A stretch of 64,000 nucleotides of DNA from an uncultured Sutterella sp. (lineage in GTDB: Bacteria > Pseudomonadota > Gammaproteobacteria > Burkholderiales > Burkholderiaceae_F): positions 77,775 through 141,774 of the forward strand of contig UQYP01000001.1 of assembly GCA_900545335.1 (NCBI GenBank), in the 5' to 3' direction. The notes under the pieces are model-generated. The model was not told where the DNA came from and did no database searches. It was given only the letters and a program-made list of their open reading frames with translations. Shown here piece after piece: positions 6,177 to 22,332 of the stretch; the stretch's first letter is position 1; each line of letters opens with the position of its first letter. The translations under genes were made by a program, and so were the position numbers.

Positions 6177-7892
6177 ATGACTACTTTAGTGACACTCCAG
6201 GCCGCCGAATTAGCATTCGGCGACCAGCCTCTTTTGGATCATGCTGATTTAACCGTTGCAGACGGTGAAAGAATCGGCATCATCGGTCGTAACGGCACCG
6301 GTAAAAGCTCGCTTTTGCGTGTCATTGCAGGCGCTGACAAACTCGATGACGGCACCAAAACCGTCATGGACGGTCTGGGTATTGCCTACGTCGAGCAGGA
6401 GCCCTTTCTGCCCGAAGCGCAGACGTTGCGAGAGTCCCTCATTTTGCGGGGGAAATTAGATGAAGAAAGTGATGAACAGATTAAGTGGCGGCAGATTGCA
6501 AAACTTGACGAATATCTTCATCGCTTTGAACTCAATGCTGACAGACCGCTCCATGGCGCTTCCGGCGGGGAGAAAAAAAGGGCGGCTTTGGCACTCGCTT
6601 TTGCTCAAAATAAAGACCTTTTGCTTTTGGATGAGCCAACCAACCACCTGGATATCGACGCGATTTTAATTCTCGAAGAATTAATCAAAAATGAATATCG
6701 AGGCTCAAAATCCCTGATGGTGATTACTCATGACAGAGCCTTTTTAGATTCCGTGAGCACTCGCATCATTGAGTTGGATCGGGGCATCCTCAGAAGCTAT
6801 CCGGGTAATTTTGATGCCTATGAAAACCGTAAAGAGCAGGAGCTGGCTGCAGAGGATATCGCCCGCAGGAAATTTGATAAATTTTGGGCTCAGGAAGAAG
6901 TCTGGATACGTAAGGGAATTGAGGCACGAAGAACCAGAAATGAAGGCCGTGTGAGACGCCTGGAGCGTTTACGTGAAGAACGTGCAGCCAGACGCGATCG
7001 CTTGGGGCAAATTAATCTCAATATCGATGCCGGAATGAAAAGCGGCAAGATTGTTGCAGAACTTGAAAAAGTGAGCCTGGCCTTTGACGACAAAGTGATC
7101 GTCAAGGACCTTGACTTCAAATTGCTCCGAGGCGACCGCTTAGGTCTTGTTGGACACAACGGTGTAGGAAAGAGCACATTGATTTCCCTTATTTTGGGAA
7201 AACGTCAGCCGGATAGCGGAAGCGTTAAATTAGGAACCAATCTCCAAATCGCTTACTTTGATCAATTGCGTGCACAATTGGATCCCAATAAAACCGTTGC
7301 AGAAACCATTTCTCCGGGCAGTGAGTGGATTGAAGTTGGTGGGAGTAAAAAACACATAATGGCCTATCTTGGGGACTTTCTATTTCCGCCAAGACGCGCC
7401 AATGTTCCGGTATCCAATTTATCCGGAGGCGAACGAAATCGTTTGCTTTTAGCCAGATTGTTTGCTCTTCCTGCTAACCTGCTGGTGCTTGACGAACCGA
7501 CCAATGATTTGGATATCGACTCGCTTGAACTTTTAGAGCAGACTCTGCAGACTTATCCCGGCACCTTAATCCTCGTCAGTCATGACCGACGTTTCTTAGA
7601 CAACGTCGTCACAGAGGTTTTAGCGCCTGAAGGAAACGGGCTTTGGCGAGAATATGTCGGAGGCTATTCAGATTGGCAGCACTACAGACCCAAGACAGAG
7701 CCTATAGTTAAAAAAGAGCCTTCTGTCGATAAAATTGCACAAAAAAGGCCTAAAACTGTCAAACTCAAGTTAACTTACAAAGAAAATAAAGAATTGGAGG
7801 CCTTACCGGAACATCTGATGCAACTTGAAGCTCAGCGTGATGAATTGATTTCTGCAATGAACGCTCTCAAGTCACGGTGCTCAGGATATTAA
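6177..7892 (+). CDS. uup: ABC-F family ATPase Uup-like (two ABC domains). The annotated frame ends prematurely; the C-terminal coiled-coil domain continues in the +1 frame to 7998.
   Basis: There are two Walker A motifs (GRNGTGKSS and GHNGVGKST), two signature motifs (ASGGEKKRAAL and LSGGERNRLLL), and an inter-domain linker. The out-of-frame segment 7861..7998 encodes ...QGYQRWEELENKKAL, which matches the Uup C-terminus (...FERWEYLEAL). Confidence 0.8.
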   Translation: MTTLVTLQAAELAFGDQPLLDHADLTVADGERIGIIGRNGTGKSSLLRVIAGADKLDDGTKTVMDGLGIAYVEQEPFLPEAQTLRESLILRGKLDEESDEQIKWRQIAKLDEYLHRFELNADRPLHGASGGEKKRAALALAFAQNKDLLLLDEPTNHLDIDAILILEELIKNEYRGSKSLMVITHDRAFLDSVSTRIIELDRGILRSYPGNFDAYENRKEQELAAEDIARRKFDKFWAQEEVWIRKGIEARRTRNEGRVRRLERLREERAARRDRLGQINLNIDAGMKSGKIVAELEKVSLAFDDKVIVKDLDFKLLRGDRLGLVGHNGVGKSTLISLILGKRQPDSGSVKLGTNLQIAYFDQLRAQLDPNKTVAETISPGSEWIEVGGSKKHIMAYLGDFLFPPRRANVPVSNLSGGERNRLLLARLFALPANLLVLDEPTNDLDIDSLELLEQTLQTYPGTLILVSHDRRFLDNVVTEVLAPEGNGLWREYVGGYSDWQHYRPKTEPIVKKEPSVDKIAQKRPKTVKLKLTYKENKELEALPEHLMQLEAQRDELISAMNALKSRCSGY

Positions 7893-8056: not shown

Positions 8057-8113
8057 AAATAATTAGGATTTATTGAAAAATTTCAGATAGATCCTTATTA
8101 TTCGCCTTCTATT

Positions 8114-8132
8114 GATAATGATTATCATTTGT
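8114..8132 (+). promoter_or_regulatory. Fur box (ferric uptake regulator operator) in the promoter of the heme-uptake operon
   Basis: GATAATGATTATCATTTGT matches the 19-bp Fur consensus GATAATGATAATCATTATC at 15 of 19 positions. A second AT-rich hexamer array (GTAATAATGATTTTCGATT) lies immediately downstream. The box is about 45 nt upstream of the ATG at 8175. Confidence 0.7.
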
Positions 8133-8174
8133 AATAATGATTTTCGATTTATTTCTATTGATAAAGGGCGGCAG

Positions 8175-9578
8175 ATGCAGCAAAAGAGCCTTCACAAATC
8201 ATTTGAGTCATCCCAGCGTTCCATGATGGGAAATCACGCTTCTGCTTTGGAAGATATGGTTCATTTCGAAGCAGAAATTACTGATAACCCGTTAAAAAAC
8301 GCTTTCAAAGGCAAAGCTGCCGTCCACACTCATATTCCCGGACTAAGCTACATGGGTGATGAAGCCATTTCTGTAATTAAGAATCAATACGAAAATAAAA
8401 GACAGGGGACAAGTTTGGCCTACATCAACGTCCCTTTTTGCGAAACCCGCTGCCTATACTGCCTTTTTTATCAAAATCCGCTTCAAGCAGAGTCCAGTGA
8501 GCATTACACCAACCTGCTGATTAAAGAATTACAGCTTTGGAGTGATATGCCCGCTCAAAAAAACGAGCCCATCCATGCCGTTTATTTTGGGGGCGGCACT
8601 CCAACTGCTTTAAATCCTCAGGATCTCTATCGCTTAATCACCGCAGTCAAAACCTATTTGCCGCTTGCCAATGACTGCGAAATGACGCTTGAAGGCAGAA
8701 TTCATCATTTCCCGGAAGAGAAAATGGAAGCCGCCTTCAAAGCCGGCATCAATCGCGTCTCACTCGGCGTTCAAACTTTTAACACTCAGGTTCGACAAAC
8801 AATGAGACGGGTCGATGACCGAGACACAATGATTCGCGCCATCGAAACACTCGCATCATTTAACCAGGCAAGCATTGTTTGTGACTTGATTTACGGCTTT
8901 CCCTATCAGGACATGTCTGTCTGGGAAGACGATGTTAAAACCGCAATCACGTTGCCGCTCGATGGCATTGACTGCTATCAGTTAAACGTTTTTGAAAAGT
9001 CCCCGCTCGGTAAATTTATCGCAAACGGCAAGCTTCCTGCCGGAGCTGATAAAGAAGAACGCGCAGAAATGTTTGCTCGATCTGTTGAACTCTTGACAAA
9101 TGCCCAATGGCGCCGTCTTTCGAATAACCACTGGTGCCAAACGTTCCGCGAACGCAATATCTATAACCGCTTCGGCAAAAGTGCAGCCGATTGTCTTGCC
9201 TTTGGAAGCGGAGCCGGCGGAAAGTTAAACGGCTACAGCTTCATGATCGAAAGAAAGTACGACGAGTGGGCTAAAAAAATTGAAAACGACATTAAACCCA
9301 TTGCTTTTGCAAGTGCTCCGAACGATCACTGGCACGCCCTGCGTACGGTCTCCTCCGAAATGGAACTCGGACGCATCAACATGCGCCGTTTAAGCGACAT
9401 TTATTCCCTGCCTCTTGAAGCGCTCAGTCAGGATGTTTTCAAACAATGGACTAAAGCCGGTCTGATTAATCCGGTCAGTGACTGGATGGTGCAGACCGTT
9501 GCCGGTCAATTCTGGCATACCACGATGGCGCAATTACTGGTCAATGTTTTAACTAAGCGGCTCGCACAAGCCAAGTAA
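8175..9578 (+). CDS. hutW: HemN-family (class C) radical SAM enzyme, ChuW/HutW-like putative anaerobic heme-degrading methyltransferase
   Basis: It has the CxxxCxxC motif (CETRCLYC) in YINVPFCETRCLYCLF, the HemN GGGTP motif (VYFGGGTPTAL), and a HemN_C-like C-terminus. It lacks the PRYTSYPTA motif of true HemN. It sits first in a Fur-box operon with a TonB-dependent receptor and a HutX-like gene. An AAGGG Shine-Dalgarno sequence lies 6 nt upstream. The ORF-track start at 8112 overlaps the Fur box, so I rejected it. Confidence 0.6.
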   Translation: MQQKSLHKSFESSQRSMMGNHASALEDMVHFEAEITDNPLKNAFKGKAAVHTHIPGLSYMGDEAISVIKNQYENKRQGTSLAYINVPFCETRCLYCLFYQNPLQAESSEHYTNLLIKELQLWSDMPAQKNEPIHAVYFGGGTPTALNPQDLYRLITAVKTYLPLANDCEMTLEGRIHHFPEEKMEAAFKAGINRVSLGVQTFNTQVRQTMRRVDDRDTMIRAIETLASFNQASIVCDLIYGFPYQDMSVWEDDVKTAITLPLDGIDCYQLNVFEKSPLGKFIANGKLPAGADKEERAEMFARSVELLTNAQWRRLSNNHWCQTFRERNIYNRFGKSAADCLAFGSGAGGKLNGYSFMIERKYDEWAKKIENDIKPIAFASAPNDHWHALRTVSSEMELGRINMRRLSDIYSLPLEALSQDVFKQWTKAGLINPVSDWMVQTVAGQFWHTTMAQLLVNVLTKRLAQAK

Positions 9579-9620
9579 AGATTTTTCAACCAAAAGAGAA
9601 AAGCTAATAACTGTTTCTCT

Positions 9621-11696
9621 ATGACTAACATGACAAAAAGTCTCTCTTTTAAGAAAAGCTATCTTGCTTTAGCTGTGGCACTTTCTCTTCCGTTAATCAG
9701 CGCTCAGGCTGCCGAAAGTTACAAAGCTCAGGACGTGGTTGTGACCGCATCGCGCGTTGAACAGCAGCTTGCCGATGTCAATATGAGCGTATCCGTTATT
9801 ACGAGAGAGGATATTGAACACAGTGCCGGCGCACAAACTATTGCTGATTTATTGGAAAGTAATGTTCCCGGCATTCGCGTCAACAATGACGGCGGACAAG
9901 GTATCGATCGCATCAAAATTCGAGGAGAAGATGCTTTCAGAACAGTGGTCATGGTGGACGGGCAAAGAATTTCAGAACAAAAATCTATGTCCGGCGTGCC
10001 GCTTCTCATTGATCCCTCTCAAGTGGAAAGAATTGAAGTCATTCGCGGTCCTGCCTCCGTTCTTTACGGATCCGATGCAATTGGCGGAGCTATCAACATC
10101 ATCACCAAGAAAGGTGGGGACAAACCTTTTGAAGCTTCAGTTTCTACGGGTTTTAACTCTTCTTCTGACGGTAAAGATGCTTCCTTCTCAATTTCCGGCT
10201 CCAGTAACGGCTGGAACTACAGATTGGGAGCCGGCATTCAGGATCATGACAATTTAGATACGCCTGTCGGAGAAATGCCGCATACCGAATTCAGTTCAAA
10301 ATCAGCTGATTTTTTCCTCTCTTACGACATCGATCCCAATAAAACCATCGGCATTTCTGCCAGCCATTATGACTTAGACTTTTCCTCAGGAAGCATCACC
10401 TACGCCAATCCTGATGACTTTTGGGTTGAAGTTCCCGAATGGAAAAGAACTCGGGGATCGATTTTCGGAGAATTTAAAAACCTAACGGATAATCTCGTCA
10501 GATTACGTATTGATGTCGGGCATGAACAAAATAAAAAACTGATGACCAATCACGTTGCAGATGTCTTTTATCCCAATCCTTCTATGCCTATCGGCATTCC
10601 CTATTATGTGGAAAACAACGCCGATAACAAACTCAACACAACCAGTGCATCTGTACAAGCCGATTGGCAAATTGCAGACAGTCACTACTTGATTACCGGA
10701 TACGAGTTCAGCTTAGACGATCTTGATGCGAACAGCTCAACTTACATGAGCTTAATGAAGCAAATTATGTCCAGCAAAGACTTTGACGGCAAAATGACGC
10801 GTCATTCTGTTTTTGCAACCATGGAAAGCACCGTTTTAGATTCATTGTCATTGAACTACGGGCTTCGCTATACATGGTTTGACAGTGAAATGGACATCAA
10901 AGTCAAAAAGGGGACCAGTCCTGACAGCTCAGACGATGGAAGCGACGGAAAGGTCGTTTTCAATTTGGGAGCCACTTGGAAACCTATTGAAGATTTAGCT
11001 CTGCGCGCAAATTGGTCACAGGGCTATCGCTATCCTCTCCTGCAAGAACTTTATGTCGACACTGCCATGGGAATGAGTGGGGGATCGACTTTGGCCAATC
11101 CCGACCTCAAACCCGAAACTTCCAATAATTTTGAAATCGGTTCTCGCTATACAAACGGTACTTTGACGATTGATGCCGCACTCTTTTACAGTGATGCCGA
11201 CGACTACATCACGACGATTCCCATTACCGATGAAATCTCCCAATATACCAATGTCGGGAAAGCAAAGACCATTGGTTTTGAACTGGATACCGGAATCAAA
11301 ATCGGCAACTTCGAACCGTATACAACACTGACACTTTTAAGACGTGAATACCAGGAAAATGGTATTAAAACTACCAAATCCGGCACTCCTAAGGTAACCG
11401 CTCGCTATGGTGTTCGCTATGACGGACAGTATGAAGGAGCAGAGCTGCGGGCAGACATTTATGCGATCAGTCAAAGCGCAACAGAAAGCCATGATATGGT
11501 TGCTGAAAAGCCCACAATTACAAGCTACGGCGGTGCAACAACCTTTAATATTGCCGGCGGCGTTTCTTTCGGTCCGCAAAATGCGTATAGCTTAGATGCT
11601 GGCTTTTATAACATTACCGACAAGAAATACCAGAATAACGGTTCGATCTATGAACCCGGCAGACACTTCGCCGTGAAGTTGAATGCTAAGTTTTAA
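9621..11696 (+). CDS. TonB-dependent outer-membrane receptor, putative heme/hemoprotein receptor
   Basis: It has a signal peptide, the TonB box DVVVTAS, a plug domain and a 22-strand barrel, and the characteristic C-terminal aromatic residue (…KLNAKF). YRYP…NPDL motifs sit in the position of the FRAP/NPNL heme-receptor motifs. The Fur-regulated context supports an iron-related substrate. Confidence 0.8.
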   Translation: MTNMTKSLSFKKSYLALAVALSLPLISAQAAESYKAQDVVVTASRVEQQLADVNMSVSVITREDIEHSAGAQTIADLLESNVPGIRVNNDGGQGIDRIKIRGEDAFRTVVMVDGQRISEQKSMSGVPLLIDPSQVERIEVIRGPASVLYGSDAIGGAINIITKKGGDKPFEASVSTGFNSSSDGKDASFSISGSSNGWNYRLGAGIQDHDNLDTPVGEMPHTEFSSKSADFFLSYDIDPNKTIGISASHYDLDFSSGSITYANPDDFWVEVPEWKRTRGSIFGEFKNLTDNLVRLRIDVGHEQNKKLMTNHVADVFYPNPSMPIGIPYYVENNADNKLNTTSASVQADWQIADSHYLITGYEFSLDDLDANSSTYMSLMKQIMSSKDFDGKMTRHSVFATMESTVLDSLSLNYGLRYTWFDSEMDIKVKKGTSPDSSDDGSDGKVVFNLGATWKPIEDLALRANWSQGYRYPLLQELYVDTAMGMSGGSTLANPDLKPETSNNFEIGSRYTNGTLTIDAALFYSDADDYITTIPITDEISQYTNVGKAKTIGFELDTGIKIGNFEPYTTLTLLRREYQENGIKTTKSGTPKVTARYGVRYDGQYEGAELRADIYAISQSATESHDMVAEKPTITSYGGATTFNIAGGVSFGPQNAYSLDAGFYNITDKKYQNNGSIYEPGRHFAVKLNAKF

Positions 11697-11708
11697 AGCC
11701 TCTGACGA

Positions 11709-12260
11709 GTGATGAAAATGACCGTTAAAACGGCCTATTGGAAATCGCAAGAACTCGTCATGATCGGTGTTTTTGCTGCTGCCATTAAGCTGTCCTCTCT
11801 CCTGATAGCTTTAGCTGGCGGCGGCATGAACCCGGTCACGCTTATACTTAAAAATCTTGTATTCACTACGTTGTTGATTGTGCTTTTGGCAAAAGTCAGA
11901 AAAAGCGGAACGCTTTTGCTCTTTACAGCTGTATCAATGATCGTGAGCGTGCTTTTGATGGGTGGAAGCATCACGTTGCTGCCCGCCGCACTGGTCGGCG
12001 CTTTGGCAGCAGAATTCGCTATTTGGCTCACAGGGGGCTTTAAAAATTCTTGGTCAACATACGTGGGCGTTGCCGTCTACGACCTCGGTACTAAACTCTT
12101 TTCTGTCGCCGTCTCCTATCTCATGATGCGGGAAACGCCGGCACTGGTTGTCTCTGTACTGCCCATTATTTTTATCGGTTACACAGGGTGCCTCCTTGGC
12201 CTTTTCACAGGCTTTCGGGCATTAAAAGAACTGCGGCACGCCGGCATCGTCAGGAGCTAA
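11709..12260 (+). CDS. Small polytopic membrane protein, putative ECF-transporter substrate-capture (S) component
   Basis: The 183-aa product is very hydrophobic, with about 5-6 predicted TM helices. It lies immediately upstream of the EcfT and EcfA-A' genes. I could not assign a specific S-component family by eye. Confidence 0.5.
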   Translation: MMKMTVKTAYWKSQELVMIGVFAAAIKLSSLLIALAGGGMNPVTLILKNLVFTTLLIVLLAKVRKSGTLLLFTAVSMIVSVLLMGGSITLLPAALVGALAAEFAIWLTGGFKNSWSTYVGVAVYDLGTKLFSVAVSYLMMRETPALVVSVLPIIFIGYTGCLLGLFTGFRALKELRHAGIVRS

Positions 12261-12262
12261 TC

Positions 12263-13036
12263 ATGAATCATTCAATCCTGACGCAAATCGAAGCGCGTAC
12301 TAAGTTACTGCTCACTCTTTTGGGTGCTATCTCAACAATCGCCTACTCCAGTCTGGCGGCTCAACTGATACTTTTTGCGTTGAGTTTTTTAATGGCCTTG
12401 CTGATTAAGCGCCCGACTTTAGTTTTTGTTTTGTATCTGCTCATGGCTTTGATGATGGGATTGGCGATCGGCTGCACAGCTGTCATCACATTTTTTATCC
12501 CTGCTCTCGGAGAGATGACGGTGCAAAACCTGCTCATACCCTTTTTACGCGGTCTGACCATGATGAACCTGGTCATGGGGCTGGCGCTTTCCACCAAAAT
12601 CGAAAACATTATGGCAGCACTTTCTCAACTGCATCTGCCGTTCGTCATTACGTTACCCTCTACGGTCATGATCCGTTTTATCCCCACCTTTGCCCATGAT
12701 ATTGCTCAGGTTTGGGAGACGCTCAAAATCAGAGGTTGGCAGTTGAATTTCACAATGCTTTGTACCCATCCGTTTTTGTGTGCAAGGCTCATTTTCACGC
12801 CCATATTGTTCCGAGCGCTCAAAAGCAGTGAAGCCCTCGGGGTGGCAGCGGAATTAAAAGGACTGGACAAAGGGTTGGGTAACCGCGCAAGCCGTGCCTT
12901 TTCTTCGGAAGAAAAGCTCTCCAACCGTGATTGGCTTACTTTGGCTACGGGAGTCTTTACTGTACTTCTCGCCCTGGCAGCTGAAATTTATCTGGGCGAT
13001 TGGGGCATTGACCCGAACACAGTCCGTTTGCCTTGA
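12263..13036 (+). CDS. ECF transporter transmembrane (T) component, EcfT/CbiQ family
   Basis: The membrane protein is 258 aa. The C-terminal region (…RALKSSEALGVAAELKGLD) resembles the EcfT coupling-helix AxxxARG-type motifs. Its start is 2 nt after the S-component stop, with a CAGGAG Shine-Dalgarno sequence. Confidence 0.6.
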   Translation: MNHSILTQIEARTKLLLTLLGAISTIAYSSLAAQLILFALSFLMALLIKRPTLVFVLYLLMALMMGLAIGCTAVITFFIPALGEMTVQNLLIPFLRGLTMMNLVMGLALSTKIENIMAALSQLHLPFVITLPSTVMIRFIPTFAHDIAQVWETLKIRGWQLNFTMLCTHPFLCARLIFTPILFRALKSSEALGVAAELKGLDKGLGNRASRAFSSEEKLSNRDWLTLATGVFTVLLALAAEIYLGDWGIDPNTVRLP

Positions 13037-13052
13037 TAGTGGGGAAGAAATC

Positions 13053-14546
13053 ATGATTGTTTTTGAAAATGTTTCCTACCGCTACCCGTTTCAAAACGAC
13101 TGGGCTGTCCGGAATTTAAATCTGACGGTTTCTCCGGGCGAAGTTGTACTGGTTACCGGTGTATCAAGCTGCGGAAAAACGACACTGATGCGATTAGCCA
13201 ACGGCCTTTGCCCACACTACTATGCGGGCGAAATGAAAGGACACGTCCGAGTTTTCGGTAAAGATACTGAGCAATCCTCTGTATCGGATATTTCCGATAA
13301 AGTCGGCACCCTCTTTCAAGACCCGGAAGATCAATTCTTCGCGCTCAATGTACGAGATGAAATGGGGTTTGCACTCAAAGTGGCCGGAACCGATCCCGCT
13401 ACCGTTAGAAAACGCATCAATAACGTGGCCGGTCGATTGCATATTAAAGACCTTTTGACTCATTCGATTTCTGCACTCTCAGAGGGGCAAAAACAGCGTG
13501 TAGCGCTCGGTGAAATTCTTGTCTCTGAACCGCAAGCTCTCATCCTGGACGAGCCGTCGGCTAACTTGGATCCGGAAGCTACCGACCGGCTCGCCCGGGA
13601 AATCAAGAGACTCAAACAATCGGGGTTTGCGATCCTCGTGGTCGACCATCGGCTGCATTGGCTCGAGAGCGTTGCCGACGAAGTGATCGTGATGCAACAG
13701 GGCCAAATAGTTAAAAGAGGTCGATTTGAGATTCTTGAAAATCAAACGTTGCGTGATGAGTACGGCCTTCGTAAAGCCCATGTACCCGATGTTCGGGAAA
13801 GGCTACCGCAAACCGATCCGGAAAATCCCATTTTGATGACGGCCGATCTGACCTTTGATTATGAACGAGCCAATCGTCATTCCAAATTGGCAAAGTTAAA
13901 ACAGCTTTTTAAAGGGGTATCGACCGAGCATAAAGAGCTTTTACTCAAAAATATTCATTTCAAAATCGGTCCCGGCATCACGGCGCTGATCGGCGAAAAC
14001 GGCAGCGGGAAAACCACCTTGGCCCGACTCATCACCGGACTGAATATCGGCAGCGGCGAACTCTATCTAAAGGGAGAAAAAACCTCTGCCGCAACGCTTC
14101 TTAAACACACAGGACTGGTACTTCAAAATGCTGATCATCAACTGCAGATGAGAAGTGTCAGGGAAGAAATTTCCGCCTGCCTTTTTGCTGCACGACGTAC
14201 TCAGCAAACGGACGAAATCGTTAATGAATTACTGGAGACGTTTTCTCTCAAAGAGCTCGCAGACCGCCATCCTCAATCTCTTTCCGGCGGTCAAAAACAG
14301 CGCCTGGTCATTGCGTGTGCTTTGGCTAAGAACCCCGACATTCTCATTTTGGATGAACCCACCAGCGGTTTAGACGGCGCCAATATGAAGCGCGTTGCCG
14401 ATGCACTTCGAGAGCAGGCTAACAAAGGAAAAGCCGTCTTACTGATTACCCACGACCTGGAACTTCTTGCCTTATGCGCCGATCAGGCTCTCCGAATGAA
14501 TTCACTAAAAAAAGAATTTTTAAATACGGAGAATAACAATGGATAA
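13053..14546 (+). CDS. Fused duplicated ABC ATPase (EcfA-EcfA'-like) of an ECF/CbiO-type transporter
   Basis: It has two complete ABC domains. Walker A motifs are GVSSCGKTT and GENGSGKTT, signature motifs are LSEGQKQRV and LSGGQKQRL, and each domain has a Walker B LILDEP. There is no transmembrane region. A GGGGAAG Shine-Dalgarno sequence precedes the ATG at 13053. Confidence 0.8.
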   Translation: MIVFENVSYRYPFQNDWAVRNLNLTVSPGEVVLVTGVSSCGKTTLMRLANGLCPHYYAGEMKGHVRVFGKDTEQSSVSDISDKVGTLFQDPEDQFFALNVRDEMGFALKVAGTDPATVRKRINNVAGRLHIKDLLTHSISALSEGQKQRVALGEILVSEPQALILDEPSANLDPEATDRLAREIKRLKQSGFAILVVDHRLHWLESVADEVIVMQQGQIVKRGRFEILENQTLRDEYGLRKAHVPDVRERLPQTDPENPILMTADLTFDYERANRHSKLAKLKQLFKGVSTEHKELLLKNIHFKIGPGITALIGENGSGKTTLARLITGLNIGSGELYLKGEKTSAATLLKHTGLVLQNADHQLQMRSVREEISACLFAARRTQQTDEIVNELLETFSLKELADRHPQSLSGGQKQRLVIACALAKNPDILILDEPTSGLDGANMKRVADALREQANKGKAVLLITHDLELLALCADQALRMNSLKKEFLNTENNNG

Positions 14547-14979
14547 AAAAGAAAAAATTCAAGAATTAATGAACGCCAAAAAGCCCGTTACCTTGGGATT
14601 AATTGCCAGGGAACTCGGCTGCACGGATCTTGAAGCAGCCCAAGCCCTGCCCGCTGACGTTTGTTCATTCATCAAGGATATCGCCTCGTTTGATGAACTG
14701 TGGGCTCAAATGAGCCAATGGGAAAAGGTGACCCTTTTCATCATCCATGAAGGTCATGTTTTTGAAATTCAATCCAAACTCAGTGCCGGTAAACGTGCAA
14801 TGGGTTACTACAACATTTTGTCCAAAGACGCCGTAATCGGCGGTCATCGGATGCTTTGGAAACCGCAGCCTTCATTTCGATGCCGTTTATGGGACGGGAA
14901 TCTCATTACGTGGCCTTCTTCGGAAAAAATCAAAAACTGCACTTTTGCGTTTACGTCGGTCGAGAAAATCATCAATTGA
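14539..14979 (+). CDS. hutX: HutX/ChuX-family cytoplasmic heme-utilisation/heme-carrier protein (putative)
   Basis: In the 146-aa product, the conserved blocks FDELW…EKVTLFIIHEGHVFEI…GKRAMGYYNIL…IGGHRM parallel the ChuX/HutX pattern (…TLVHT.DVILEF…HGYFNL.GK…SGHI). It overlaps the ecfA stop by 8 nt. Confidence 0.55.
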   Translation: MDKKEKIQELMNAKKPVTLGLIARELGCTDLEAAQALPADVCSFIKDIASFDELWAQMSQWEKVTLFIIHEGHVFEIQSKLSAGKRAMGYYNILSKDAVIGGHRMLWKPQPSFRCRLWDGNLITWPSSEKIKNCTFAFTSVEKIIN

Positions 14980-15047
14980 TTGAATCGGTTAAAGAAGGTT
15001 TTCAAAAAGCCAAAGCTCAATTTTGTCAATAAAAAAGAGGGTTCCAG

Positions 15048-15557
15048 ATGTCTGCTTTAATCATTATCAGCTCTATTACGGGAAACACTTGGAAAGTCGG
15101 TGAGGCGCTGAATCGGGTCTATCCGACAACTTCTCTTAAACGCACCACAGATGTACTCAAATGCACAGAGCTTCTTGACCAACACAATAAAGTGATCATC
15201 GGATTTTGGTGTGACAAAGGAGGCCTGCCGCCCGATCTGGTCCAATTGGTACCTTATATTCGCAATAAATCTCTGGGGATTTTTGCCACCATGGGCGGCA
15301 ATCCTCAAAGCGATCGAGCTCAAGAGTGGTTCAGACGCCAGTGTGACGCAGTTGTCGGCACAGAGCGCAGCAACTGTCTTGAAGCCACATTCCTGTGTCA
15401 GGGCAAAATCAATCCGGTTTTAATTGAACAAATGAAAAAAATGCCGGGCTACAAGGAAACACCCGAATCCGTTGCCCGTCGAGGGGAAGCCACAAAACAC
15501 CCCAATGAAGATGATTACAAGGCCGCTTGCAACGCCTTCCGTGCCTTTTTAGCTTAA
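15048..15557 (+). CDS. Short-chain flavodoxin
   Basis: The N-terminal FMN phosphate-binding loop ISSITGNTWKV is present. The product is 169 aa. Confidence 0.7.
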   Translation: MSALIIISSITGNTWKVGEALNRVYPTTSLKRTTDVLKCTELLDQHNKVIIGFWCDKGGLPPDLVQLVPYIRNKSLGIFATMGGNPQSDRAQEWFRRQCDAVVGTERSNCLEATFLCQGKINPVLIEQMKKMPGYKETPESVARRGEATKHPNEDDYKAACNAFRAFLA

Positions 15558-15568
15558 GAGTTTGAACC

Positions 15569-16216
15569 ATGGAAAATTTACAGTCTCTGTACACATTAGT
15601 CGGACCGGCCGGTGTAGCACTGATTTTTGTTGCTCTATACGCTTTATACGTTTCGGTTTGGCTTATCACCTATCTAAACCGGGTATGGAAAAATTTTCGT
15701 CGTGACTTTTTGGATCTGGAAAGCGGAAAAGAGCGCTGTTTAAAAGATATCAATCCGGATACGGCCAATCCGCTTATTCGCATTATTTACGATATTGTTG
15801 CCACGCACGCCTCTCACTCCGATGACATTCGCGCCGAGGTTGCTTACCTTTTCCACAGAAACTTCAAGCGAGTCAGCAACGGTCTGGTTTGGCTCAAGCT
15901 GATCAGTGTCATCTCTCCTTTGCTTGGTCTGCTCGGAACCGTTTTCGGCATGGTAGAAGTCTTTAAAACGCTCTCTTTTACCGAAGTACCTTCCACAGAA
16001 TTATTGGCTGCAGGAATTTGGCAGGCCCTGATTACCACCGTAATGGGTCTTTGCATTGCTATTCCTGTCTTGATGGTTTACTACGGATTGATGCTCAAAT
16101 TCCGCGGTTTTCATATTGAAGCAGTGGAACACAGCTACCGTGCTCTGGAGATTATGAATCGCATTCGAGCTAAAAATAACCCTCACGCAATCAATGATGA
16201 AGAGGAGAAAGAATAA
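15569..16216 (+). CDS. exbB: ExbB/TolQ/MotA-family proton channel, ExbB
   Basis: It has a three-TM topology and conserved C-terminal TM helices (LISVISPLLGLLGTVFGMVEVF…GIWQALITTVMGLCIAIP). It is followed by exbD and tonB. Confidence 0.85.
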   Translation: MENLQSLYTLVGPAGVALIFVALYALYVSVWLITYLNRVWKNFRRDFLDLESGKERCLKDINPDTANPLIRIIYDIVATHASHSDDIRAEVAYLFHRNFKRVSNGLVWLKLISVISPLLGLLGTVFGMVEVFKTLSFTEVPSTELLAAGIWQALITTVMGLCIAIPVLMVYYGLMLKFRGFHIEAVEHSYRALEIMNRIRAKNNPHAINDEEEKE

Positions 16217-16620
16217 TGAGTATTTTCGTCCCTCCCGGTTTATCTCCCATAGATGATGATCCGCAAATCGATTTGACGCCTCTCATCGATTGTCTGTTCA
16301 TGCTGATTATTTTCTTTGTAGTCACGATGAGTTTTTCCAAACCGGTGTTGGAAATTATTCTGCCCGAAAGTGAAACAGCCGAAGTCAAGCGTGCGGACCG
16401 ACAAATCAGTGTAAACGTTCGTGCTGACGGTACCTATTGGATGAATAACCGAACGGTATCCCTGGCAGAGATCGAAGGTGCTCTCATCGCCTCACCAAAT
16501 TCTGTTTTGAATATTCACATGGATGGGAAGGCTTCCTTTGACTCTTTTGTCCCGCTCGTGGATTTAGCCAAAGAAAAAAATGAAGGGCGATTTGTGATCA
16601 GCACACAGGCTAAAAGATGA
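16216..16620 (+). CDS. exbD: ExbD/TolR biopolymer transport protein
   Basis: It carries IDLTPLIDCLFMLIIFFVV, the ExbD N-terminal TM signature. Its start overlaps the exbB stop. Confidence 0.85.
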   Translation: MSIFVPPGLSPIDDDPQIDLTPLIDCLFMLIIFFVVTMSFSKPVLEIILPESETAEVKRADRQISVNVRADGTYWMNNRTVSLAEIEGALIASPNSVLNIHMDGKASFDSFVPLVDLAKEKNEGRFVISTQAKR

Positions 16621-17336
16621 AATCTGTCAAACACATCGCCTATGACGCTCACAAACAAAGCTCAGAAGAGCGACAGGCAAATTTCAGCGCCAAACTTTTA
16701 ACAGGTGTCGTAACGATCACTCTGTTTACTGTGGCCTTTTTGCAATTTTCAGATCCTTTGGCCATGCCTCAAAAGGCGAGCATTGAGCAAAATCCCGTTA
16801 AACCGATCGACAATGTGGCTACTCCTCTTAAAAAGGAACCCCGTTGGGTCATTATGACTATTTCTCCCGGAGCCTGGAAAATCCATTTGGAACAACCGCA
16901 GCCTGTGATTGAAAAAGTCAGAGAAGAAAAACCGATTGAGGTAAAACCCAAAGAAAAACCTAAGCCTGAAAAGAAAAAAACGCAACCTCGGAAAAGCGTT
17001 ACAAAGAGCGTAGGCAGTGCCAAACAAGCGGCTGCCACAACCGGAAGCGGACAAAATACCAACGATATGTCCAATGCTCTGGCGCAAATTGTTCAGGTAA
17101 TCGAAGAACACAAACGTTATCCCAAGCGAGCAAGAGACATCGGCATGGAAGGCTCAACAGTGCTCATCGTCTCCATTGACAGTAACGGCCAGGTGATCGA
17201 TTATCGATTGCGTGACGGAGGAAATGCTCTTTTCAGACGAGCGACCCTATCGGCTGCCCAACACCTTACAGGACTTAAAACACAAATACGCCGAGCGGCC
17301 ACTTTAGAAATTCCCGTTCGCTATGAAATTGACTGA
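16617..17336 (+). CDS. tonB: TonB energy transducer
   Basis: It has an N-terminal anchor, a Pro/Lys/Glu-rich spacer (EEKPIEVKPKEKPKPEKKK) and a C-terminal TonB domain (YPKRARDIGMEGSTVLIVSIDSNGQV). Confidence 0.85.
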   Translation: MKSVKHIAYDAHKQSSEERQANFSAKLLTGVVTITLFTVAFLQFSDPLAMPQKASIEQNPVKPIDNVATPLKKEPRWVIMTISPGAWKIHLEQPQPVIEKVREEKPIEVKPKEKPKPEKKKTQPRKSVTKSVGSAKQAAATTGSGQNTNDMSNALAQIVQVIEEHKRYPKRARDIGMEGSTVLIVSIDSNGQVIDYRLRDGGNALFRRATLSAAQHLTGLKTQIRRAATLEIPVRYEID

Positions 17337-18241
17337 TGGCTATGGATTCTTTCATTCTTGATATCAGAGACCTACACAAAACTTATTCAAACGGATTTCA
17401 AGCCCTTAAAGGCATTTCTCTTCAAATCCGGAAAGGGGCTTTTTTCGGACTTTTAGGGCCGAACGGTGCAGGCAAATCAACCCTAATCAACTCTCTGGTT
17501 GGACTCGTTAAACCCACTCAGGGACAGATTCGTATTGCAGGATTTGATCTCAGCACGCATAAAACTGACGCGCTGATGAATATCGGTGTAGTGGCCCAGG
17601 AAATCCTATGCGACCCCTTTTTAACCGTATATGAAATGCTCTCTTTTCAAAGCGGTTATTACGGGCTCAAACACAATAAGGCTTGGATTGAGGAAATTAT
17701 TGAAAACCTCGGTTTGTCTGACAAAATTCAGACGCCTTGCAGGCTTTTGTCAGGCGGTATGAAAAGAAGGGTTATGGTTGCACAGGCTCTTGTTCACAAA
17801 CCTCCTCTTATCGTACTCGATGAGCCCACGGCAGGTGTAGATGTCCAACTGAGAAATCAGCTCTGGCACTTTATAGAAACATTACATAAAAAAGGACACA
17901 CCATTGTTCTGACCACTCACTATTTGGAAGAAGCCCAGAACCTGTGCTCTGAGATAGCCATCATCAATCAGGGAAAAATCGTCACCAAGGGGAAAACCGA
18001 TGCCTTGCTGTCATCGATGCAACAAAACACTTTGCGGTTTCGTTTAACGAAAGGAGCATTCCCTGCAAGTCTTGCTCCAAGACTGCTTAACCACGAAGCT
18101 CAGTCCTACGTATTGGGTTATACAGACGGCGGTGATTTAACCGATTTGCTGACAGCCTTACGCACAAACCATTGTGAAATTGAGAATGTGCAAACCTCTC
18201 GAGCCTCGTTGGAAGATTTATTTATCAAAGTTACCCAATAA
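17336..18241 (+). CDS. ABC transporter ATP-binding protein (ABC-2 / YadG-like exporter ATPase)
   Basis: Walker A is GPNGAGKST, the signature motif is LSGGMKRRV and Walker B is IVLDEPT. Its ATG overlaps the tonB TGA (ATGA), which suggests translational coupling. Confidence 0.85.
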   Translation: MAMDSFILDIRDLHKTYSNGFQALKGISLQIRKGAFFGLLGPNGAGKSTLINSLVGLVKPTQGQIRIAGFDLSTHKTDALMNIGVVAQEILCDPFLTVYEMLSFQSGYYGLKHNKAWIEEIIENLGLSDKIQTPCRLLSGGMKRRVMVAQALVHKPPLIVLDEPTAGVDVQLRNQLWHFIETLHKKGHTIVLTTHYLEEAQNLCSEIAIINQGKIVTKGKTDALLSSMQQNTLRFRLTKGAFPASLAPRLLNHEAQSYVLGYTDGGDLTDLLTALRTNHCEIENVQTSRASLEDLFIKVTQ

Positions 18242-18249
18242 AATCGAAA

Positions 18250-19035
18250 ATGACCGTTTCCTCACAACCGTTTTCTGCTCGGAATGCTTTTTTCACCTTG
18301 CTGAAAAAAGAAATCATTCGATTTCAAAAAGTTGCCTTTCACAGCATTGCTACACCGGTTTTATCTTCTTTGCTGTATCTGATCGTTTTCGGAGCTGCAC
18401 TACAGGATAAGATTCTGACGGGCTCTCAAACATCGTACTTGGAGTTTCTCGTGCCCGGCCTGGTGATGATGGCTATTTTGCAGAACGCTTTTGCCAATAC
18501 TTCTTCATCATTTGTTCAGTCAAAAATTTCCGGCACGTTGTCGTTTTTACTGGTGACACCGCTTAATAACATCATGATTGCATCGGCCTATGTTTTATCC
18601 GCTGTCTTTCGCGGACTGGTGGTCGGTCTTTGTGTATGGGTGGGCAGTGCCATTTGGATCACTCCCAATATCGGTTCGGCTTTTTGGATTTTTATCTTTG
18701 CACTATTAGGTGCCTTTATCATGGCTTGTCTCGGCCTGATTACAGCCATTTGGGCAGACCGATACGAGCAAATGGGTGTTATTCAAACCTTCGTCATCAT
18801 GCCCCTGACTTTTTTGTCCGGCGTGTTTTATTCCTGTGAGGCTTTACCACAGCCCTGGCGTGATTTAACCGTATTTAATCCGCTGTACTACTTGATTGAC
18901 GGCTTCAGAGGCGGATTTTTAAATCATTTTGAAACAGACCCTTTATTGGCTGTTCTTTTTGGCTTGATGGCCTGCCTCGTTACTTTTTTCATCAGCGTCT
19001 GGCTTTTACGAAAGGGCTATAAAATCAAATCATAA
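18250..19035 (+). CDS. ABC-2 family transporter permease (YadH-like)
   Basis: It is a 6-TM permease of 261 aa, 8 nt after the ATPase gene. Confidence 0.75.
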   Translation: MTVSSQPFSARNAFFTLLKKEIIRFQKVAFHSIATPVLSSLLYLIVFGAALQDKILTGSQTSYLEFLVPGLVMMAILQNAFANTSSSFVQSKISGTLSFLLVTPLNNIMIASAYVLSAVFRGLVVGLCVWVGSAIWITPNIGSAFWIFIFALLGAFIMACLGLITAIWADRYEQMGVIQTFVIMPLTFLSGVFYSCEALPQPWRDLTVFNPLYYLIDGFRGGFLNHFETDPLLAVLFGLMACLVTFFISVWLLRKGYKIKS

Positions 19036-19155: not shown

Positions 19156-20997
19156 GTGGCTATTGATTCCGCTGAAATTCGATTCCAGGCACTGAGCCAA
19201 TTAAAGACTCTTGACCAATTTGTTCCGGCTCGTGCAAAAATCGCACCGCACACAGAAGCTCTCAGACAATTTGACCGACGTTCCAACACATGGGAACGCG
19301 TTTCTTACAGAGATTTGGATGAACGGATCCAGCAATGGCGACGGGCTTTTTGCAAGATGGGTCTCAAGCACGGTGATCGAGTAGCGATCTTGCTGCCGAA
19401 CGGAGTCGACGCCGTCTGTTGCGATCAGGCCGTTTTGGCTAACGGCTACGTACCGGTGCCGCTGCACGCCATTGATACGCCGGGGTCCAGTGCCTTTATT
19501 ATTGCGGACAGTCAGGCTTGCGTCCTGGTCACTAACCGACAAAACCGCTGGGATTCCATTTCTCTCAGTCATACGGTTATGCCGGATCTCAGGAACGTGA
19601 TTTTCACGGAAGAATCCTCCCCTGAGGAACGTCGTGACGGAGTAAAACTGTGGGATTTGGAATCGTGGTTAGCCACAGGGCACGGCGTTACAGAATTGCC
19701 CGCTCCTCCCACAGAAGATGACCTGGCTGCCATTGTTTACACCTCCGGAACAACCGGTAAACCCAAAGGTGTCATGCTCACCCATAAAAATGTGGTAAGC
19801 AATGTCATCAACACCTTAAAAACCGTTTATCCCAAACCCGGTGATGTGTTTTTGTCTTTCTTACCCGTGTCTCATACTTTCGAGCGCATGGCCGGTTACT
19901 ATCTGGCATTAGGGATGGGATGCACTATTGTTTACACGCGTTCCATCCAACAATTGGCTGAAGACTTCAGAATCGTACGCCCTAACGTCATCATTTCAGT
20001 TCCTCGTATTTACGAGAGAATTTTTGCCAAAGTTCAAGCCAAATTGGCCCGCGAGTCTAAGTTTGTCCGATTCTTGTTCAACTGGGCCGTCGAAGTCGGT
20101 TGGAGACGATTTAGTCAAAAGTACGGTCTTCCCTGTCAACGAGGCGGAGCAACCGTTTTTGATCCGATTGTTTGGCCGATCCTTGAACGCCTGGTATCTA
20201 AAACTCTGCTCAATCAATTCGGCGGTCAATTAAGAATTGCCATCAGCGGAGGAGCCGCGATGAATCCTAAGGTTGCCAAAGCCTTCTGCGGTTTAGGCTT
20301 ACCGATCATTCAGGGCTATGGGATGACTGAAACGAGCCCCATTATCGCCGGCAACTCTTTGGCCTATAACCATCCGAGCACCGTTGGCAAACCCTTACCC
20401 GAGACGAATGTCCGACTGGGCGAAGGCAATGAAATTCAAGTGAAGTCTGCCTCCGTTATGAAGGGGTATTGGAACAGACCCCAAGCCACACGGGAAGCTT
20501 TTACTGAAGACGGGTGGTTGAAAACGGGCGATGTGGGTGAATTTGATCACGAGGGTTTTCTCAAAATTGTCGGCCGTATCAAAGAAATTATCGTTACCAG
20601 TACGGGTGAAAAGGTCCCGCCGGCTGACTTGGAATTGGCCATTGAAATCGATCCGCTTTTTGATCAGGCTTTAGTAATCGGCGAAAATCGTCCCTTCATT
20701 TCAACGATTGTCGTACTCAATAAAGAAGAGTGGAAAAATTTAGCCGCGACCTTGGATCTGGATCCGAACGATCCTGAAAGTTTAATGGCCAATGTCACGC
20801 GCAATGCGGTCTTAAAGCGAATTAAAGCCGCCGCAAAGGGCTTCCCGCAATACGCCTTGCCCAGAAACGTTTACCTCACCTTAGAGCCTTGGACGATTGA
20901 CAACGGTCTGATTACGCCGACGTTAAAACTCAAGCGTAAAGCATTAAATGAGAAATTTGCTCCGCAAATTCAAACACTTTATGCAGGTCATCGCTAA
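19156..20997 (+). CDS. AMP-forming acyl-CoA synthetase (long-chain-fatty-acid--CoA ligase family)
   Basis: The AMP-binding motif YTSGTTGKPKGVMLTHKN and a downstream TGD motif (WLKTGDVGEF) are present. The start codon is GTG, with a GAGG Shine-Dalgarno sequence. Confidence 0.8.
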   Translation: MAIDSAEIRFQALSQLKTLDQFVPARAKIAPHTEALRQFDRRSNTWERVSYRDLDERIQQWRRAFCKMGLKHGDRVAILLPNGVDAVCCDQAVLANGYVPVPLHAIDTPGSSAFIIADSQACVLVTNRQNRWDSISLSHTVMPDLRNVIFTEESSPEERRDGVKLWDLESWLATGHGVTELPAPPTEDDLAAIVYTSGTTGKPKGVMLTHKNVVSNVINTLKTVYPKPGDVFLSFLPVSHTFERMAGYYLALGMGCTIVYTRSIQQLAEDFRIVRPNVIISVPRIYERIFAKVQAKLARESKFVRFLFNWAVEVGWRRFSQKYGLPCQRGGATVFDPIVWPILERLVSKTLLNQFGGQLRIAISGGAAMNPKVAKAFCGLGLPIIQGYGMTETSPIIAGNSLAYNHPSTVGKPLPETNVRLGEGNEIQVKSASVMKGYWNRPQATREAFTEDGWLKTGDVGEFDHEGFLKIVGRIKEIIVTSTGEKVPPADLELAIEIDPLFDQALVIGENRPFISTIVVLNKEEWKNLAATLDLDPNDPESLMANVTRNAVLKRIKAAAKGFPQYALPRNVYLTLEPWTIDNGLITPTLKLKRKALNEKFAPQIQTLYAGHR

Positions 20998-21036
20998 AAT
21001 AGCAACTTTTGCTGCGAACAGATTGAATTGAAGATT

Positions 21037-22332
21037 ATGGCTGAACATACCAAATTATTACCGGATTGGATGATCGGACTGACCGATCGCATCATGAAGT
21101 ACTACATTGATCGAGAACTCAATGTTGAACCCATTATTCTCGACAGGCATCCGGAGCCTCAGCCCGGTCATCAATACATGATGTACGCACACATCCCGTT
21201 CTGCCATACTCTGTGCTCGTATTGCACATTCCACCGCTTTATCTTCAAGGAATATAAAGCGCGTGAGTACTTTGTGAATTTGCGCAAAGAAATGCAGATG
21301 GCTCGGGACATGGGCTATGACTTTACCTCTATGTATATCGGCGGAGGTACTACCACTATTTTGGAAGACGAGCTGATTCAAACCATTGAACTGGCACGAA
21401 AGCTCTTCCCGTCCATGAAAGAGGTCTCCTGTGAAACCGATCCCGCTCATTTAGCGACAGAAAGTTTCCGAAACCTCAAAGGCTTGGTCGATCGTATGTC
21501 TGTCGGCGTTCAAAGCTTTGATGACAATATCCTCAAAATGATCGATCGGTATGAAAAATTCGGCAGCGGCGAGCAAATTTTCGAACGCATTCAAGCCGCT
21601 CAGGAACTCTTCCCGATCATGAATGTCGACATGATTTTCGGCTTCAGAGGACAAACAGAAGAGATTTTGCAGCGGGATGTAGATTTATTGATGAAATTAA
21701 ATCCCCGTCAGATCACAACCTATCCTTTGATGGTCACCACGCAAACTAAAGCAAGTGTTCGAAATACGATTGCCGCCCCCACAGCCGATCTGGCGGCTCA
21801 GTACCGCATCATTTTGGATACGTTGGGGAAGAACTACAATCAACTCACCTCCTGGACTTTCGGCCGCTCTCACGATGAAGGCTTTGATGAGTATGTCGTC
21901 GATCACGACGAATACCTGGGGCTCGGATCCGGAGCCTTCAGTTTCCTTGGTGATTCGCTGTACGTCAATACGTTTAGTCTGCGACGCTATAACGAGCGCA
22001 TCAGTCAGGGCAAGATGGGCGTAGAGAGAAGAAAGCGTTTCGATAAGCACGCCATTTTGCAATACAGGCTTCTGTTGGGTTTATTTGCCGCTCGCTTATC
22101 GAGAAAGTACTTCCGTGAAGTTCACGGAGTTGATTTAGATCGTGCCCTGTTTAAAGAAATGCTGGGGTTAAAGCTCGCCGGTGCCATTAAAGATAGCCCT
22201 GCGGATCCGGATAATCTCATCGTAACCGATGCGGGTAAGTTCTTAGGCTTAGTCATGATGAAAGCTTTTTATTCCGGCATGGATAACGTTCGGGCTGAAT
22301 TGCGCAAGCCTCTGTCTTCCATTGATATGTAG
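21037..22332 (+). CDS. HemN-family radical SAM protein (coproporphyrinogen-III-oxidase-like paralog; not HydG)
   Basis: It has HIPFCHTLCSYCTF (CxxxCxxC), YIGGGTTTIL (GGGT motif) and a HemN_C-like tail. I took the ATG at 21037 in preference to the upstream TTG at 21028. Confidence 0.75.
   Translation: MAEHTKLLPDWMIGLTDRIMKYYIDRELNVEPIILDRHPEPQPGHQYMMYAHIPFCHTLCSYCTFHRFIFKEYKAREYFVNLRKEMQMARDMGYDFTSMYIGGGTTTILEDELIQTIELARKLFPSMKEVSCETDPAHLATESFRNLKGLVDRMSVGVQSFDDNILKMIDRYEKFGSGEQIFERIQAAQELFPIMNVDMIFGFRGQTEEILQRDVDLLMKLNPRQITTYPLMVTTQTKASVRNTIAAPTADLAAQYRIILDTLGKNYNQLTSWTFGRSHDEGFDEYVVDHDEYLGLGSGAFSFLGDSLYVNTFSLRRYNERISQGKMGVERRKRFDKHAILQYRLLLGLFAARLSRKYFREVHGVDLDRALFKEMLGLKLAGAIKDSPADPDNLIVTDAGKFLGLVMMKAFYSGMDNVRAELRKPLSSIDM

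Follow-up and report, generated by a model that had tools for sequence, protein, structure and literature searches.

An ECF-type transporter in a Fur-associated gene cassette predicted to serve heme uptake and anaerobic heme degradation in an uncultured Sutterella

Introduction

Heme from the host and from the diet is a major source of iron in the gut, and most work on the anaerobic degradation of heme to date concerns Escherichia coli, Vibrio and Fusobacterium. In the accounts of Gram-negative heme uptake consulted, a TonB-dependent receptor in the outer membrane operates together with a periplasmic binding protein and an ABC permease/ATPase (a 2025 review; PMC10404700). The present analysis concerns a block of twelve genes in a 64,000-nucleotide stretch of DNA (contig UQYP01000001.1, positions 77,775 to 141,774; called the window below) from an uncultured Sutterella. 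In this block, the place of the binding-protein-dependent importer is taken by a transporter module of the energy-coupling factor (ECF) type. The locus is likely to be repressed by Fur and to allow a gut betaproteobacterium of strictly anaerobic habit to take up heme and to break it down without oxygen.

Among the described systems, the hmuTRUVWF locus of Fusobacterium nucleatum (PMC10404700) also comes from a Gram-negative anaerobe and combines a TonB-dependent heme receptor with an enzyme of the ChuW/HutW family and a flavodoxin of the HmuF/FldH type, as the window does. It differs in having the HmuTUV importer and no HutX, whereas the window encodes ECF S, T and fused A-A' components together with HutX. 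The chuAS-chuTWXYUhmuV locus of E. coli O157:H7 and the hutWXZ and tonB1-exbB1-exbD1-hutBCD genes of Vibrio cholerae are Fur-regulated, as the window locus appears to be, and have in common with it a ChuW/HutW equivalog, a ChuX/HutX carrier, a TonB-dependent receptor and a dedicated ExbBD-TonB set. Import is by ChuTUV or HutBCD in those loci, that is, by a binding protein with a type II ABC importer, and ChuY or HutZ is encoded as well. The cassette, in contrast, has no homolog of ChuT/HutB, ChuY or HutZ, and carries an ECF importer and a HmuF-type flavodoxin in one co-oriented block.

ECF importers of heme have been reported only from Gram-positive bacteria. LhaSTA of Staphylococcus lugdunensis is a dedicated group I system, with its S, T and A genes in an iron-regulated heme locus and without a soluble binding protein (PMC7299338); further systems are those of group A Streptococcus and Lactobacillus sakei (cited in PMC7299338). 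LhaSTA and its kin belong to monoderm Firmicutes, whereas the module in the window lies behind a TonB-dependent receptor in a diderm, has a fused A-A' ATPase and is accompanied by genes for anaerobic degradation. The existence of ECF heme systems elsewhere was explicitly left open in PMC7299338. A preliminary description of this DNA, made from the sequence alone, had considered the combined architecture to be undescribed for Gram-negative heme acquisition. In agreement with this, neither a diderm ECF importer of heme nor this cassette was found described in the literature searched (including the 2025 review, PMC10404700 and a study of Enterococcus faecalis), the coverage of journals being incomplete. 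The anaerobilin synthase of E. faecalis was considered as an ECF-linked parallel and dismissed, as its gene is monocistronic.

If the ECF module carries heme, it would provide a second inner-membrane route for heme, one without a binding protein, and its S component would define a new heme-specific family. Diderm bacteria would thereby gain their first ECF importer of heme.

Results and Discussion

Organization of the Locus

The twelve genes are read from the same strand and extend from 8175 to 19035 (Table 1), as had been described; open reading frames were called, with the starts fitted to orthologs. Each domain assignment of the preliminary description was recovered with Pfam and NCBIfam. 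Its general picture, a locus for heme capture, import and anaerobic degradation behind a Fur box, is retained, and its statements on an intact hutX, on the role of the flavodoxin and on the membership of the ABC-2 genes are revised below. From hutW to the permease gene, the intergenic distances are 42, 21, 2, 16, -8, 15, 11, -1, -4, -1 and 8 nt, with four overlaps of start and stop codons. Such overlaps had been noted earlier, along with a largest gap of 68 nt (14979 to 15048), which proved to be an artefact of the frameshift in hutX; the true distance there is 15 nt.

Table 1. Positions of the cassette features in the window, with the matches on which they are based.
Feature	Positions	Strand	Basis
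Promoter-like site, TTGAAA-17-TATTAT	8073-8101	+	Consensus scan, 10/12 matches; consensus match alone
Fur box, GATAATGATTATCATTTGT	8114-8132		16/19 consensus positions
hutW/chuW, class C radical SAM methyltransferase (predicted anaerobilin synthase)	8175-9578	+	TIGR04107
TonB-dependent outer-membrane receptor, probably for heme	9621-11696	+	Plug and beta-barrel Pfam domains
ecfS, ECF S component, 180 aa, predicted heme-binding	11718-12260	+	PF09605, 37.8 bits (cutoff 28.7)
ecfT, ECF T component, 257 aa	12263-13036	+	PF02361 CbiQ, 46.4 bits (cutoff 25)
ecfA-A', fused ATPase, 497 aa	13053-14546	+	Two ABC_tran domains
hutX, frameshifted	14539-15032	+	Encoded frame stops at 14979; native C-terminus in another frame to 15032
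HmuF/FldH-type flavodoxin; predicted anaerobilin reductase, possibly heme carrier	15048-15557	+	PF12641 Flavodoxin_3, 98.5 bits
exbB	15569-16216	+	PF01618, 80.9 bits
exbD	16216-16620	+	PF02472, 85.3 bits
tonB	16617-17336	+	PF03544 TonB_C, 39.1 bits; Pro/Lys/Glu-rich linker in translation
ABC-2 system ATPase (DrrA-like), lineage-specific	17336-18241	+	ABC_tran and DrrA1-3_C domains
ABC-2 permease (YadH-like), lineage-specific	18250-19035	+	PF01061, 110.4 bits

The Fur box is located 13 nt 3' of the -10-like hexamer of the promoter-like site. A single Fur box had been claimed upstream of the genes, and it is indeed the sole site with at most three mismatches in the 64-kb window, where 0.04 such sites are expected by chance. 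Of 73 related loci, 39 also have a site resembling a Fur box (at least 14/19 positions) ahead of hutW, compared to 1.6% of random 280-nt windows. The cassette may be regulated by Fur in response to iron, as suggested by these sites. Between 6000 and 23000, no Rfam match, riboswitches included, was obtained even at an E-value of 1, and regulation by a cobalamin or flavin mononucleotide (FMN) riboswitch was discarded on this ground. The interval from 19035 to the following co-oriented gene (19156) was found to contain no terminator, so that transcription may extend beyond 19035.

Conservation of the Cassette

The locus was surveyed through its S component, taking one genome per species, which yielded 80 loci; every protein of the window was then compared to these loci by tblastn. 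hutW, the receptor, the three ECF genes and the flavodoxin are jointly present in 58 of the 60 evaluable loci, and their order is the same in nearly every locus. hutX is present in all but four of those 58, and exbB-exbD follow the core in 48 of 55 loci. Independent gene calls with Pfam labels gave the same order in the near relative L001, which includes the ABC-2 pair, and in Desulfovibrio intestinalis (L004), which has a ten-gene core. In the latter, tonB is the last gene of the cassette, and a divergent gene for a DtxR-family regulator comes next. The conserved unit is composed of ten genes, hutW through tonB; the ABC-2 pair is an attachment specific to the Sutterellaceae.

Carriers in the Sutterellaceae are Sutterella wadsworthensis, S. 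parvirubra, S. massiliensis, S. seckii, Mesosutterella, Dakarella, Duodenibacillus and Candidatus Aphodousia, while those in the Desulfovibrionaceae are Desulfovibrio, Mailhella and Bilophila. Closest to the window are metagenome-assembled genomes (MAGs) of uncultured 'Sutterella sp.' and Candidatus Aphodousia (the CAG-521 group), with an S protein of 95% identity. The two families probably came to have the core in common through horizontal transfer. Sutterella, Bilophila, Desulfovibrio and Mailhella are prevalent anaerobes of the human gut, some of them pathobionts.

Two loci labelled as Firmicutes (L027, Oscillospiraceae, and L028, Acutalibacteraceae) have the full diderm cassette, including the receptor and ExbBD-TonB. 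They are probably mis-binned contigs of Sutterellaceae and were not taken as evidence of a spread to monoderms.

ECF Module

The S, T and A components are encoded side by side, as in the dedicated group I ECF transporters. According to the Pfam and NCBIfam assignments of the cassette proteins, this S/T/A-A' module occupies the slot of HmuTUV/ChuTUV and no periplasmic binding protein gene is present in the cluster, as had been proposed. Among the cassette genes of the window, L001 and L004, no other inner-membrane importer or binding protein was found.

The S component belongs to PF09605 (Trep_Strep; NCBI name 'MptD family putative ECF S component'), and no NCBIfam model matches it at E ≤ 0.001. 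It is modelled by AlphaFold2 (AF2) as six helices (pLDDT 75.5). The sole specific fold match in the PDB is the ECF S component 5edl, from the YkoEDC-type group I system of Bacillus subtilis, whose gene context is unrelated; the match is weak (E 0.016, TM 0.56, 19% identity). We take 5edl to be YkoE, which would bind thiamine or its precursors. The architecture of YkoEDC, an S and a T component with a fused double ATPase, is presumably like that of the window module. Searching a set of 5.8 billion proteins gave 934 homologs of the S component at E ≤ 0.001, and a profile search of 1.84 billion representatives at 50% identity gave 116 matches. The S component thus constitutes a narrow subfamily, only distantly tied to the remainder of PF09605.

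The T component has the same length as its 257-aa ortholog in L001. The fused ATPase matches TIGR04520 (ECF_ATPase_1) with 311 bits, slightly under the cutoff of 315. Considering the gene context, heme is the probable substrate of the module.

Outside the heme cassettes, an S-T-AA' module of the same subfamily (63% identity) was observed in L075 (5341-8255) and in L073, without hutW, receptor, hutX or flavodoxin. These are the sole exceptions to the linkage. The module of L075 adjoins a DDE transposase gene and a gene of the TetR family.

HutW and the Flavodoxin

The radical S-adenosylmethionine (SAM) enzyme is a true ChuW/HutW equivalog. It scores 495.9 bits with TIGR04107 (cutoff 400), compared to 165 bits with HemW (cutoff 205), 133 with HemN and 120 with HemZ; a grouping with HemW/HemZ, which had been named earlier as an outcome that would overturn the assignment, is not seen. 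PF04055 is matched with 67.6 bits, and the CxxxCxxC motif of the [4Fe-4S] cluster is found in the translation as CETRCLYC. Its family membership and genomic context suggest that this HutW converts heme to anaerobilin and Fe2+. Extra HutW-like paralogs, with 31-36% identity to the window HutW, are found beside the cassette in several Sutterella genomes (L081, 4251-5489; L045, 16071-17192; L044, 19101-20375).

The flavodoxin of the cassette has a single significant sequence match in the PDB, 8g64 ('Heme-bound flavodoxin FldH from Fusobacterium nucleatum'), over the full length with an E-value of 4e-8 and an identity of only 24%. The same entry is the top Foldseek match of its AF2 model (pLDDT 90.9), with a TM of 0.84 in both normalisations; the other matches listed reach at most 0.64. 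This indicates that the window flavodoxin has the helical cap in common with FldH, the C-terminal helices of the model being located at residues 123-130, 139-148 and 154-168. The FMN loop SSITGNT (residues 8-14) is aligned with SSETGNT of FldH, and S9, T11, N13 and T14 are invariant in the orthologs. The top NCBIfam match is BilS, the partner flavodoxin of bilirubin reductase, which was not assigned, as the score is 68 bits against a cutoff of 155.

HmuF and FldH bind FMN and heme, hand heme to the anaerobilin synthase HmuW and then reduce anaerobilin via hydride transfer; the one-electron donor to the radical SAM cluster in the F. nucleatum assays was a separate canonical flavodoxin, and the genes for HmuW and HmuF frequently lie side by side in anaerobes of the Gram-negative type (PMC10404700). 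The preliminary description had taken the flavodoxin for the obvious electron donor of HutW. Given the HmuF/FldH-type fold and the roles described for that family, it is probably better regarded as an anaerobilin reductase, perhaps also a heme chaperone. The earlier remark that no ChuY/HutZ-type reductase is present has to be qualified in the same sense: homologs of ChuY and HutZ are indeed absent, but a reductase function is probably supplied by the HmuF-type flavodoxin.

Frameshift in hutX

The native C-terminus of HutX (…LETAAFISMPFMGRESH…) was found out of frame by three-frame translation. Alignment of the DNA to near relatives and to the conspecific contig L087, which is 98.5% identical over 18 kb, places a 7-nt deletion at ~14848. 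In L087 and in all other relatives, HutX is intact, with a length of 165-178 aa. The 146-aa product encoded in the window matches TIGR04108 with 65.5 bits (cutoff 110) at profile positions 1-96 only, and PF06228 with 33.9 bits (cutoff 25) at positions 1-80 of 134. When the frame is restored, the score with TIGR04108 rises to 110.9 bits; the intact orthologs of L001 and L004 score 122 and 144. The PF06228 match expected of this HutX-like reading frame was thus obtained, but the protein is not intact. The gene is HutX by descent and is disrupted in this strain.

The truncated product is present in five public contigs. One of them, of 217 kb and from the human-gut assembly ERZ917710, was compared to the window over 6,441 bases and showed 100% identity. 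Since seven nucleotides are deleted and the same sequence is found in public contigs (possibly not independent samples), a single-base sequencing error is ruled out. The presence of HutX and a HmuF-type flavodoxin in one operon makes a division of labour between heme trafficking and anaerobilin reduction directly testable.

A second frameshifting deletion is located within 7 kb, in the ABC-F gene uup (6177-7892). Compared to the 98.5%-identical conspecific contig, 11 nt are deleted at 7867, which puts the native C-terminus out of frame (to 7998) and truncates the product to 571 aa, versus 610-611 aa in relatives. In L012, a MAG of an uncultured Sutterella, there are two copies of hutX (12954-13276 and 13774-14096), ~820 bp apart, resulting either from a tandem duplication or from an assembly artefact.

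TonB-Dependent Receptor

A signal peptide with AQA at its end and a sequence resembling a TonB box, DVVVTAS, are seen in the translated receptor. Its top NCBIfam subfamilies are TIGR01785 (TonB-hemin, 243.6 bits) and TIGR01786 (208.1 bits), followed by siderophore (157.7 bits) and B12 (146.9 bits) receptors. Sequence matches in the PDB cover mostly the plug domain and are non-specific. Together with the gene context, the order of the subfamily scores suggests that heme is probably the substrate.

A common motif, QGFRxP...(S/T)MG...NPDLKPE, is found in the orthologs at approximately residues 455-500 of the window protein. Its Met is invariant in ~70 receptor orthologs, the two most divergent receptors (L068 and L076) having His instead, which makes it a possible candidate for a ligand position. 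The FRAP/NPNL signature was tried as evidence of heme specificity and dropped, as the box aligns with CirA, YncD and the pyrroloquinoline quinone receptor, and the His of PhuR aligns elsewhere.

Among close relatives (L001 and L006-L009), the identity of the receptor is 53-89%, versus ~70-98% for most of its neighbours. Such divergence points to either allelic replacement or diversifying selection acting on a surface-exposed protein.

ABC-2 Pair

The permease of the ABC-2 pair has NF011648/PRK15066 as its closest model, with 203 bits, under the cutoff of 225. The start of the ATPase gene overlaps the tonB stop by 1 nt, and the gap is at most 5 nt in close relatives. The preliminary description had called the exporter translationally coupled to tonB. 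Membership of the pair in the conserved cassette is not supported, as it is absent from the Desulfovibrionaceae-like loci (0 of 21 evaluable). In 16 of 29 Sutterellaceae-like loci, the pair is situated downstream of the cassette; in nine, it is upstream and divergent. Judging from the gene orders, a single inversion of adjacent blocks would suffice to convert one orientation into the other.

A promoter-like site (TTGACA-17-GATTAT, 10/12 matches) was noticed at 17176-17204, inside the 3' part of tonB and ~130 nt before the start of the ATPase gene; it could give the exporter a Fur-independent expression.

Other arrangements were seen within Sutterella. In S. wadsworthensis (L081, 13695-15864), the flavodoxin of the cassette is directly followed by the ABC-2 pair, with no exbBD-tonB between them. 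In S. seckii (L045, 1605-3825) and its relatives L042, L044 and L053, a second HmuF-like paralog stands directly 5' of the pair, on the strand opposite to hutW. The linkage of flavodoxin and ABC-2 genes recurs across different gene arrangements.

Proposed Pathway

Under iron limitation, the promoter at ~8073-8101 would be derepressed. The receptor, energised by the ExbB-ExbD-TonB proteins of the locus, would move heme into the periplasm, where the membrane-embedded S component would capture it directly, no periplasmic binding protein being involved. Its passage across the inner membrane, at the expense of ATP, would then be driven by a T subunit dedicated to this module and by the fused A-A' ATPase. 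Once in the cytoplasm, heme would be held by HutX (which is inactivated in this strain), the HmuF-type flavodoxin or both and passed to HutW. This enzyme is predicted to methylate and open the ring, releasing Fe2+ and anaerobilin, and the reactive anaerobilin would be reduced by the HmuF-type flavodoxin. The analysis establishes which genes are present, their order and conservation, and the Fur box; the substrates of the receptor and of the ECF module, the enzyme activities and the control by iron are inferred from family membership and context.

Alternative Explanations

Several observations weigh against an assignment of the locus to heme. The receptor remains under the curated cutoffs of the heme-receptor models (243.6 versus 316.85 and 208.1 versus 323.75 bits), and its FRAP/NPNL-like region is common to non-heme receptors. 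The heme ligand of F. nucleatum FldH, His134, aligns with Tyr135 in the window, an approximate correspondence with an alignment gap adjacent to it; the residue is Tyr in at least 90% of the window clade, Gly in other Sutterella and His in the Desulfovibrionaceae orthologs. hutX is frameshifted, and the heme pathway of this strain may be impaired as a result. PF09605 has no assigned substrate. The S component thus does not fall into a clear vitamin or metal family, which the preliminary description had named as a finding that would count against heme, and heme as its cargo is predicted from the gene context. In addition, L073 and L075 have the ECF module without heme genes. These two loci and the uncharacterised 'MptD family putative' label would also suit a module that carries another cargo (another metallo-tetrapyrrole or corrinoid, or a cofactor of the pathway, for example a flavin for the flavodoxin or a methionine/SAM precursor for HutW), with the heme importer encoded elsewhere. 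The ECF substrates known are mostly vitamins and metals, and the three known heme S components are so little alike that they offer no sequence signature (PMC7299338). Such a cargo is nevertheless unlikely: 58 of 60 loci, drawn from two bacterial families, have the module between the receptor gene and hutX, no riboswitch for FMN, cobalamin, SAM or another ligand is present, the regulation appears to be of the Fur type both here and in the related loci, and the cassette contains no alternative inner-membrane importer or binding protein. It is very unlikely that the locus of this strain is a decaying, non-functional remnant, even though both hutX and uup carry deletions relative to the conspecific contig and the truncated hutX allele recurs in public assemblies. 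The remaining eleven genes are intact and have the full length of their orthologs, the indels relative to the conspecific amount to four across 18 kb, and the deletions in hutX and uup could be assembly artefacts of a single source. F. nucleatum, moreover, manages without HutX, its heme being trafficked by HmuF (PMC10404700), and the HmuF-type protein of the window could compensate in the same way.

For the last two genes, the balance is even between an exporter that belongs with the heme genes and a housekeeping exporter of the YadGH type, unrelated to heme, in which case the unit would not be one twelve-gene system. The generic PRK15066/YadH type of the permease, the lack of the pair in all 21 evaluable Desulfovibrionaceae-like cassettes, the promoter-like site ahead of the ATPase gene and the sufficiency of a single inversion for the two orientations speak for a housekeeping role. 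The close spacing to tonB, here and in close relatives, and the adjacency of flavodoxin and ABC-2 genes in S. wadsworthensis, with its paralog version in S. seckii and relatives, speak against it. An export step is suggested because this adjacency recurs in three gene arrangements; export of reduced anaerobilin by the ABC-2 pair is an attractive but unsupported idea. A complete pathway in which ECF heme import, HutW and HmuF-type detoxification of anaerobilin are followed, in the Sutterellaceae, by ABC-2 export of the reduced linear tetrapyrrole is doubtful as a whole. If it exists, the pump would be without precedent as an exporter dedicated to what is left over when heme is degraded anaerobically.

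Neighbouring Genes

Directly downstream of the cassette, a co-oriented gene (19156-20997) encodes a FadD-like AMP-dependent ligase. It is followed by a second HemN-family radical SAM protein (21028-22332; NF006385, 651 bits), also co-oriented. This pair (19156-22332) is kept in close relatives only. Further on, between 22461 and 27402, a large subunit of an [FeFe]-hydrogenase, a protein resembling cytochrome b561, the HydF maturase and another radical SAM protein are encoded, a gene set consistent with a strictly anaerobic host.

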